From Escherichia coli (GTDB lineage Bacteria > Pseudomonadota > Gammaproteobacteria > Enterobacterales > Enterobacteriaceae): a stretch of 64,000 bases of DNA. Of the stretch, positions 33,868-35,214 are shown in pieces. The notes beneath the pieces were generated by a model, which saw nothing but the letters and a program-made list of their open reading frames with translations, ran no database searches and had not been told where the DNA came from. The stretch lies in the NCBI RefSeq assembly GCF_030013595.1, contig NZ_CP122768.1. One strand, written 5' to 3'. Within the stretch, counting starts at the first letter, position 1. Every line of letters begins with the position of its first letter. The position numbers and the translations under genes were made by a program.

Positions 33868-33876
33868 CGCCTGGCG
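33868..33876. repeat. IS10 target-site duplication, left copy (CGCCTGGCG)
   Basis: Identical 9-mer at 35206..35214 directly flanking the IS10 termini. Confidence 0.93.
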
Positions 33877-33921
33877 CTGATGAATCCCCTAATGATTTTT
33901 ATCAAAATCATTAAGTTAAGG

Positions 33922-33991
33922 TAGATACACATCTTGTCATATGATCAAATGGTTTCGCCAAAAATCAATAATCAGACAACAAAATGTGCGA
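33922..33991 (-). ncRNA. IS10 RNA-OUT antisense RNA (position inferred from known IS10 architecture)
   Basis: Known IS10 layout places pOUT transcript antisense to the transposase start region; not independently verifiable here. Confidence 0.4.
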
Positions 33992-35192
33992 ACTCGATAT
34001 TTTACACGACTCTCTTTACCAATTCTGCCCCGAATTACACTTAAAACGACTCAACAGCTTAACGTTGGCTTGCCACGCCTTACTTGACTGTAAAACTCTC
34101 ACTCTTACCGAACTTGGCCGTAACCTGCCAACCAAAGCGAGAACAAAACATAACATCAAACGAATCGACCGATTGTTAGGTAATCGTCACCTCCACAAAG
34201 AGCGACTCGCTGTATACCGTTGGCATGCTAGCTTTATCTGTTCGGGCAATACGATGCCCATTGTACTTGTTGACTGGTCTGATATCCGTGAGCAAAAACG
34301 GCTTATGGTATTGCGAGCTTCAGTCGCACTACACGGTCGTTCTGTTACTCTTTATGAGAAAGCGTTCCCGCTTTCAGAGCAATGTTCAAAGAAAGCTCAT
34401 GACCAATTTCTAGCCGACCTTGCGAGCATTCTACCGAGTAACACCACACCGCTCATTGTCAGTGATGCTGGCTTTAAAGTGCCATGGTATAAATCCGTTG
34501 AGAAGCTGGGTTGGTACTGGTTAAGTCGAGTAAGAGGAAAAGTACAATATGCAGACCTAGGAGCGGAAAACTGGAAACCTATCAGCAACTTACATGATAT
34601 GTCATCTAGTCACTCAAAGACTTTAGGCTATAAGAGGCTGACTAAAAGCAATCCAATCTCATGCCAAATTCTATTGTATAAATCTCGCTCTAAAGGCCGA
34701 AAAAATCAGCGCTCGACACGGACTCATTGTCACCACCCGTCACCTAAAATCTACTCAGCGTCGGCAAAGGAGCCATGGATTCTAGCAACTAACTTACCTG
34801 TTGAAATTCGAACACCCAAACAACTTGTTAATATCTATTCGAAGCGAATGCAGATTGAAGAAACCTTCCGAGACTTGAAAAGTCCTGCCTACGGACTAGG
34901 CCTACGCCATAGCCGAACGAGCAGCTCAGAGCGTTTTGATATCATGCTGCTAATCGCCCTGATGCTTCAACTAACATGTTGGCTTGCGGGCGTTCATGCT
35001 CAGAAACAAGGTTGGGACAAGCACTTCCAGGCTAACACAGTCAGAAATCGAAACGTACTCTCAACAGTTCGCTTAGGCATGGAAGTTTTGCGGCATTCTG
35101 GCTACACAATAACAAGGGAAGACTCACTCGTGGCTGCAACCCTGCTTACTCAAAATCTATTCACACATGGTTACGTTTTGGGGAAATTATGA
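33984..35192 (+). CDS. IS10 transposase (402 aa)
   Basis: MCELDILHDSLYQFCPELHLKRLNSLTLACHALLDCKTLTLTELGRNLPTKARTKHNIKRIDRLLGNRHL... matches IS10/Tn10 transposase. Confidence 0.96.
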   Translation: MCELDILHDSLYQFCPELHLKRLNSLTLACHALLDCKTLTLTELGRNLPTKARTKHNIKRIDRLLGNRHLHKERLAVYRWHASFICSGNTMPIVLVDWSDIREQKRLMVLRASVALHGRSVTLYEKAFPLSEQCSKKAHDQFLADLASILPSNTTPLIVSDAGFKVPWYKSVEKLGWYWLSRVRGKVQYADLGAENWKPISNLHDMSSSHSKTLGYKRLTKSNPISCQILLYKSRSKGRKNQRSTRTHCHHPSPKIYSASAKEPWILATNLPVEIRTPKQLVNIYSKRMQIEETFRDLKSPAYGLGLRHSRTSSSERFDIMLLIALMLQLTCWLAGVHAQKQGWDKHFQANTVRNRNVLSTVRLGMEVLRHSGYTITREDSLVAATLLTQNLFTHGYVLGKL

Positions 35193-35205
35193 GGGGATCT
35201 CTCAG

Positions 35206-35214
35206 CGCCTGGCG
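35206..35214. repeat. IS10 target-site duplication, right copy (CGCCTGGCG)
   Basis: See left copy; encodes duplicated PolB residues RLA. Confidence 0.93.

Follow-up and report, generated by a model that had tools for sequence, protein, structure and literature searches.

The DNA polymerase II gene (polB) of this Escherichia coli strain is split by a complete copy of the insertion sequence IS10. The copy is solitary and of the IS10-left type, and we consider it almost certain that it transposed into polB recently. In the 64-kb stretch of DNA that was analysed (hereafter the window), the element occupies positions 33877..35205 on the plus strand. It is 1329 bp long, starts with CTGATGAATCCCC... 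and ends with ...GGGGATCTCTCAG, and its G+C content is 44% compared with 52.6% for the window. A perfect 9-bp direct repeat, CGCCTGGCG, abuts both ends: the left copy lies at 33868..33876, where it encodes polB codons 514-516 (R-L-A), and the right copy at 35206..35214. An exact 9-mer would be found at both element boundaries by chance with a probability of about 4^-9. The length of 1329 bp, the imperfect terminal inverted repeats of about 23 bp and the 9-bp duplication all match the IS10 group. Compared with the IS10 hotspot consensus NGCTNAGCN, the target CGCCTGGCG agrees at four of the six specified positions (G2, C3, G7, C8) and has C4 and G6 where the consensus has T4 and A6, with the dyad symmetry kept; the duplications at other IS10 loci that we sampled are similarly loose. 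The original prediction had described a complete IS10 with a 9-bp target duplication, a full-length transposase gene, an insertion point after polB codon 516 and no accompanying Tn10, and on these points it was borne out.

The solitary state follows from BLAST searches of the window with the IS10 and with the 6.5-kb interior of Tn10, which recovered a single IS10 copy, no second one and no Tn10 interior. Likewise, a search for the outside end across the window, allowing up to three mismatches, returned one site only. The arrangement of Tn10, in which two inverted IS10 copies enclose tetR/tetA/tetC/tetD and jemABC, is thus missing from the window. This copy number applies to the 64-kb window, and the rest of the genome, including any Tn10 or IS10-right located elsewhere, lies outside it.

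All parts expected of a regulated IS10 are in place. The outside-end terminal inverted repeat (23 bp, CTGATGAATCCCCTAATGATTTT) is found at 33877..33899 on the plus strand and its inside-end counterpart, CTGAGAGATCCCCTCATAATTTC on the minus strand, at 35183..35205; the inside end begins CTGAGAGATCCCC..., and 17 of 23 positions agree between the outside end and the reverse-complemented inside end. There are only two GATC sites in the element, one at IS10 nt 1320 in the inside end (35196-35199) and a Dam site at IS10 nt 67-70 (33943..33946) in the pIN promoter region. The transposase gene (33984..35192, plus strand) encodes a full-length protein of 402 aa, identical to WP_001352368.1, and the same accession is found in R100, in NEB 5-alpha and in wild strains. 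The protein scores 402 bits against NF033591 (NCBIfam IS4; cutoff 152), has all the DDE residues (D97, D161 and E292) and retains an intact YREK motif of the IS4 family (Y285, R288, E292 and K299). A PDB sequence search with the transposase identified no solved relative by sequence.

The antisense RNA-OUT is encoded on the minus strand at 33922..33991 (IS10 nt 115 to 46), where Rfam model RF00240 matches over its full length (1-70) at 97.3 bits (gathering score 41, E=2e-20). Its sequence is the complement of the 5' end of the transposase mRNA, start codon included, and it folds into a stem-loop of -21.3 kcal/mol (z=-4.0), while RNA-IN by itself is unstructured (-1.1 kcal/mol). In the published control circuit of IS10, an antisense block of transposase translation is combined with a coupling to replication through Dam methylation (PMC5006887). 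The element has the same orientation as polB, and therefore SOS-inducible polB transcripts would enter its outside end. When we folded such a read-through transcript, a hairpin paired the AUG region (-12.3 kcal/mol), with a z-score of -0.64 that is not significant alone; this predicted fold is consistent with, and no proof of, the fold-back protection against external promoters that has been published. A simple sigma-70 scan of 33700-36300 found no consensus promoter. By eye, we located the -10 element of pOUT (TAAAAT) at 33999-34004 on the minus strand. Since pOUT is directed antisense into the 5' part of polB, it is not expected to activate any adjacent gene.

Two copies of IS10 served to type the element, both from plasmid R100 (NC_002134), in which they are inverted, lie 9147 bp apart and bracket Tn10. 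The window copy is identical at 1329/1329 nt to the R100 copy on the gltS/jemA side (36132-37460), and also 100% identical to many plasmid copies. It is 98.9% identical to the R100 copy on the tetD side (43950-45278), from which it differs by 15 nt (positions 24, 25, 27, 47, 83, 107, 410, 425, 903, 1249, 1268, 1271, 1272, 1281 and 1300) and by four residues (I266V, S381L, T389A and V398A, from the window copy to the tetD-side copy). The interior of Tn10 in R100 reads gltS (jemA), three small ORFs, tetR, tet(B), tetC and an HTH gene (tetD). Schollmeier and Hillen reportedly placed tetC and tetD between tetA and IS10-right in 1984, and the outside end on the tetD side, ...GATTTTGGTAAAAATC..., is the familiar end of IS10-right and mini-Tn10. 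By gene order and end sequence, the tetD side is therefore IS10-right, which makes the window copy an IS10-left type.

The left/right assignment is based on the gene order of R100 and, in addition, on a labelled copy in NEB 5-alpha, whose fhuA::IS10 has been mapped and named IS10L (PMC11481808). This copy is one synonymous nt (position 776) away from the window copy and 16 nt away from the R-type. At the diagnostic sites, the window copy has the L-type base in 15 of 15 cases and the R-type base in none (0/15); judged by its sequence it is of the IS10-left type and not a canonical IS10-right, and an IS10-right identity is ruled out. Two of the differences between the types, at 33959 and 33983 (IS10 nt 83 and 107), fall in the 35-nt region of pairing between RNA-IN and RNA-OUT. 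Of these, one changes the RNA-OUT loop, and the other replaces a G-C pair of the RNA-OUT stem by G-U and is located at -1 of the transposase AUG. Cross-inhibition between L- and R-type copies would therefore be imperfect, and these two differences may be relevant to the weakness reported for IS10-left.

The interrupted gene starts with a GTG at 32329. Its 5' part (32329..33876, plus strand) comprises codons 1-516, as (33876-32329+1)/3 = 516, and its 3' part (35215..36018, plus strand) comprises codons 517-783 and the stop codon, cut off from the promoter and the start codon. Exo I (DIET, 156-159), motif A (SLYPS, 422-426) and motif B (KIIMNAFYG, 493-501) are in the 5' part; motif C (YGDTDS, 543-548), the thumb and the C-terminal clamp-binding sequence QLGLF (779-783) are in the 3' part, so that the insertion separates motif B from the catalytic motif C. 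Deletion in silico of 33877..35214 (1338 bp) restores a polB of 2352 bp and 783 codons, which aligns end to end with the E. coli Pol II structures 1Q8I and 3K57; the match to this family B polymerase is collinear over the full length, with Exo I and all three motifs (A, B, C) present. As separate pieces, the two parts match 1Q8I without gaps (residues 1-516 and 514-783), and this alignment revealed no frameshift or stop codon in either half.

Reading from the polB start continues through 15 codons of IS10 and stops at 33922-33924. From this start codon only one product is possible, a fusion of 531 aa made of 516 PolB residues and an IS-encoded tail of 15 aa. Because neither the YGDTDS aspartates (motif C) nor the thumb nor the QLGLF clamp-binding tail is part of this product, we infer that the strain is a natural Pol II null. 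E. coli can do without the enzyme, as polB is non-essential. Upstream of the gene, a pattern match identified a LexA-box-like sequence, CTGTATAAAACCACAG, at 32258..32273 (plus strand), which we take to be the polB/dinA SOS box, and the SOS-regulated promoter region of polB is intact by sequence. Downstream, rapA is a separate gene that starts at 36182, and a strong polar effect on the rapA side is not expected.

A second reading frame arises at the other junction. This ORF of 283 aa (35167-36018, plus strand) has its ATG in the inside end of IS10 and runs in frame into polB codons 514-783, thereby covering motif C, the thumb and the QLGLF clamp-binding motif. With no Shine-Dalgarno sequence evident upstream, the ORF is probably not expressed. 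Were it expressed, it would yield a clamp-binding fragment of Pol II.

The most direct control for the insertion comes from near relatives. The closest complete genomes are those of HCP5S3_I2 and LCP30S3_I5, E. coli strains from pig faeces in the UK, which match the left 25 kb of the window at 100.0% and the right 25 kb at 99.9%. In both relatives the flanks of the element overlap by exactly 9 bp and polB is annotated as intact. The nearest relative, NZ_CM149870.1, contains the exact element-free junction, in which CGCCTGGCG occurs once; this empty site is the decisive control that places the target duplication beyond chance. The flanks are 99.92-99.99% identical to NZ_CM149870.1 over about 30 kb, with one, three and four mismatches in blocks of 13.7, 11.3 and 4.8 kb, and the rest of the window is collinear. 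An empty site in strains this similar, together with polB halves that are otherwise undamaged, suggests that the event is recent. The two PolB residues that differ from the relative (P350 and G717) are in the state of K-12 and 1Q8I; the interrupted gene thus shows no decay, a further sign that the insertion is recent.

Apart from the IS10, the window differs structurally from the relatives only by an IS2 upstream of thiB, which is theirs alone. It is located between espY2 and the thiB TPP riboswitch (13734-15064 of the relative's locus) and is flanked by a 5-bp duplication, TATGC; the window has the corresponding empty site at 22601-22615, with TATGC at 22605-22609. These near-identical strains thus differ by two independent IS events, an IS10 in polB here and an IS2 in the relatives. 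The comparison also helped us to annotate other parts of the window. According to the relative's annotation, 21891-22460 and 40167-40943 (both on the minus strand) encode the type III secretion effectors EspY2 and EspY1, which stand on either side of the thi-ara-polB-rapA block; the espY1 of the window is 15 bp longer than that of the closest relative. Between rluA and espY1, at 39972-40150 (plus strand), the window holds a short fragment for which the relative's annotation gives a frameshifted and truncated 'transposase DNA-binding-containing protein'. It is what is left of an old IS and has no relation to the IS10. Finally, apaH and folA are separated by a chromosomal toxin-antitoxin pair, ccdA/ccdB (49055-49604, minus strand).

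Among 5,426 complete RefSeq E. coli genomes, a junction-spanning query recovered the polB insertion nowhere at a query coverage of at least 80%. A gene-position index held no exact record of the 531-aa PolB-IS fusion or of the 283-aa IS-PolB ORF, JGI metagenome contigs gave zero exact matches to the left junction, and a literature search for IS10 plus polB returned nothing relevant. IS10 itself is widespread, with matches in 1,902 of the 5,426 E. coli genomes, at 6,604 places and in up to 45 per genome.

We propose that the IS4-family DDE transposase moved the IS10 into the chromosomal polB by non-replicative cut-and-paste. A staggered 9-bp cut of the target CGCCTGGCG, followed by gap repair, would have left the direct repeat. 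The existence of near-identical strains with the empty site and the otherwise undamaged halves of polB would place this event in the recent past. The element retains all that regulated transposition requires, namely its ends, the transposase, the RNA-OUT/RNA-IN pair and the two Dam sites. We found no sequence evidence against an insertion.

Food for discussion is whether a copy of this type can still move. Foster and colleagues reportedly measured in 1981 that IS10-left is 1-10% active. Elsewhere it has been called inactive or weak (PMC11148124). The original prediction had reasoned from the full-length transposase that the element may still be mobile; the reasoning falls short, since a full ORF is also a feature of IS10-left, which is nonetheless described as poorly active or inactive (PMC11148124). 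The possibility itself gained support from other sides. We typed 13 full-length chromosomal IS10 copies, evenly spread over 13 RefSeq E. coli chromosomes, at the 15 diagnostic sites. The L-type base was present at all 15 sites in five of the 13 copies, four of which equal the window copy exactly and one of which differs by 1 nt. Three window-identical copies from wild strains have unique 9-bp duplications, one at chuA, one within a PDZ/Do-protease gene and one upstream of ycaD. One sampled copy was purely of the R-type and another nearly so (1/13 each), each with its own duplication, and six of the 13 were mosaics of the two types (e.g. LLLLLLRRLLLLLLL, RRRRRRLLRLLLLLL and LLLLLLLLLRRRRRR), which implies recombination or gene conversion between the types in the wild. 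Those sampled copies without a duplication share a common right flank derived from composite transposons. Moreover, an insertion of IS10L into a plasmid has been observed in NEB 5-alpha (PMC11481808). Given the empty site in the relatives, the L-type copies with target duplications of their own at other loci and the hop in NEB 5-alpha, the L-type is likely still mobile, and a contribution by R-type transposase encoded at another place in the genome would also be compatible with these sequences. The window copy itself can probably still move, most likely at a rate below that of IS10-right.

Alternatively, the copy could be a dead relic of IS10-left, immobile alone and put into polB by a transposase acting in trans from an IS10-right or a Tn10 elsewhere. 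It carries all 15 of the IS10-left bases, including those behind I266, S381, T389 and V398, and the changes at nt 83 and 107 fall in the region of translation initiation and antisense pairing. Helpers would be available, as R-type copies and L/R mosaics coexist in wild E. coli, and the literature regards IS10-left as inactive or weak (PMC11148124). Against such a relic speak the intact ORF, DDE triad and ends, and the pure L-type copies that sit at several unrelated loci with unique duplications. The IS10 transposase, moreover, is established to act preferentially in cis, which makes a helper in trans less attractive. The IS10L that hopped into a plasmid did so in NEB 5-alpha, where only IS10L copies have been mapped (PMC11481808). 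On balance, we regard the relic as an unlikely explanation that nonetheless deserves some weight.

Far less probable is an artefact, by which the IS10 would have hopped from a cloning host before sequencing or been misplaced as a repeat during assembly. Widely used hosts of the DH10B, DH5-alpha and JM109 lineages carry IS10L (PMC11148124, PMC11481808), and the junction is absent from the other public genomes, gene records and metagenome contigs that were searched. A misassembly, however, would not yield a perfect 9-bp duplication with intact, in-frame polB on both sides, and clone libraries are no longer usual for sequencing E. coli. At nt 776 the window copy is unlike the fhuA::IS10L of NEB 5-alpha and identical to the common copies of wild strains, and the 64 kb around it form an unbroken stretch of wild-type chromosome that is collinear with modern isolates from pigs. 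It is least credible of all, to the point of being negligible, that the element is one end of a larger composite transposon, be it Tn10 or an IS10-flanked resistance unit. Many E. coli IS10 copies that have no duplication of their own do abut remnants derived from Tn10, with TGCTCAGCA and TGCATTGCC as common right flanks; here both ends adjoin polB with matching 9-bp duplications, removal of 1338 bp restores polB perfectly, and neither a second IS10 nor a Tn10 interior is present in the window. The restored polB and the single-copy BLAST result refute a composite transposon within the window. A recent transposition of a solitary IS10-left-type copy into polB thus remains our preferred explanation.

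In itself, this is a known element, moved by a known mechanism into a non-essential gene, and thus an ordinary insertion event that matters little beyond the description of the strain. A natural Pol II-null E. coli could be of use as a lineage marker, or in studies of SOS polymerases in wild isolates. Together with its relatives, the strain offers a clean pair of filled and empty sites in near-identical genomes, and the insertion adds modestly to the evidence that copies of the IS10-left type, reputed to be defective, do move in the wild. Textbooks treat IS10-left as the defective arm of Tn10. A bolder reading, which we find possible but doubtful, is that IS10-left is an autonomous and frequent transposer in natural E. 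coli, which may recombine freely with IS10-right into mosaics; separately, and just as tentatively, polB::IS10 could be a selected rather than a neutral loss of Pol II, altering SOS-dependent or stationary-phase mutagenesis. If IS10-left were indeed autonomous, the polB insertion would be one fresh example.

Among known systems, the closest counterpart is the IS10-left of Tn10 in R100, with which the window copy shares all 1329 nt and the transposase WP_001352368.1. They differ in setting: the window copy is chromosomal, solitary and flanked by its own 9-bp duplication, whereas the R100 copy is an arm of Tn10. The IS10-right of Tn10, the functional reference, resembles the window copy in length, ends, gene layout, RNA-OUT, GATC sites and the 9-bp duplication. 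In RefSeq, identical copies are labelled 'IS4-like element ISVsa5 family transposase'; ISVsa5 is the ISfinder and PGAP name for elements of the IS10 group, which differs in name only and covers both the L and R types. The fhuA::IS10L of E. coli K-12 NEB 5-alpha/DH5-alpha (NZ_CP017100.1) is likewise a solitary L-type copy; it inactivates a chromosomal gene, is flanked by a 9-bp duplication (GATTGAGCA) and differs from the polB insertion in its target gene and in belonging to a laboratory lineage.
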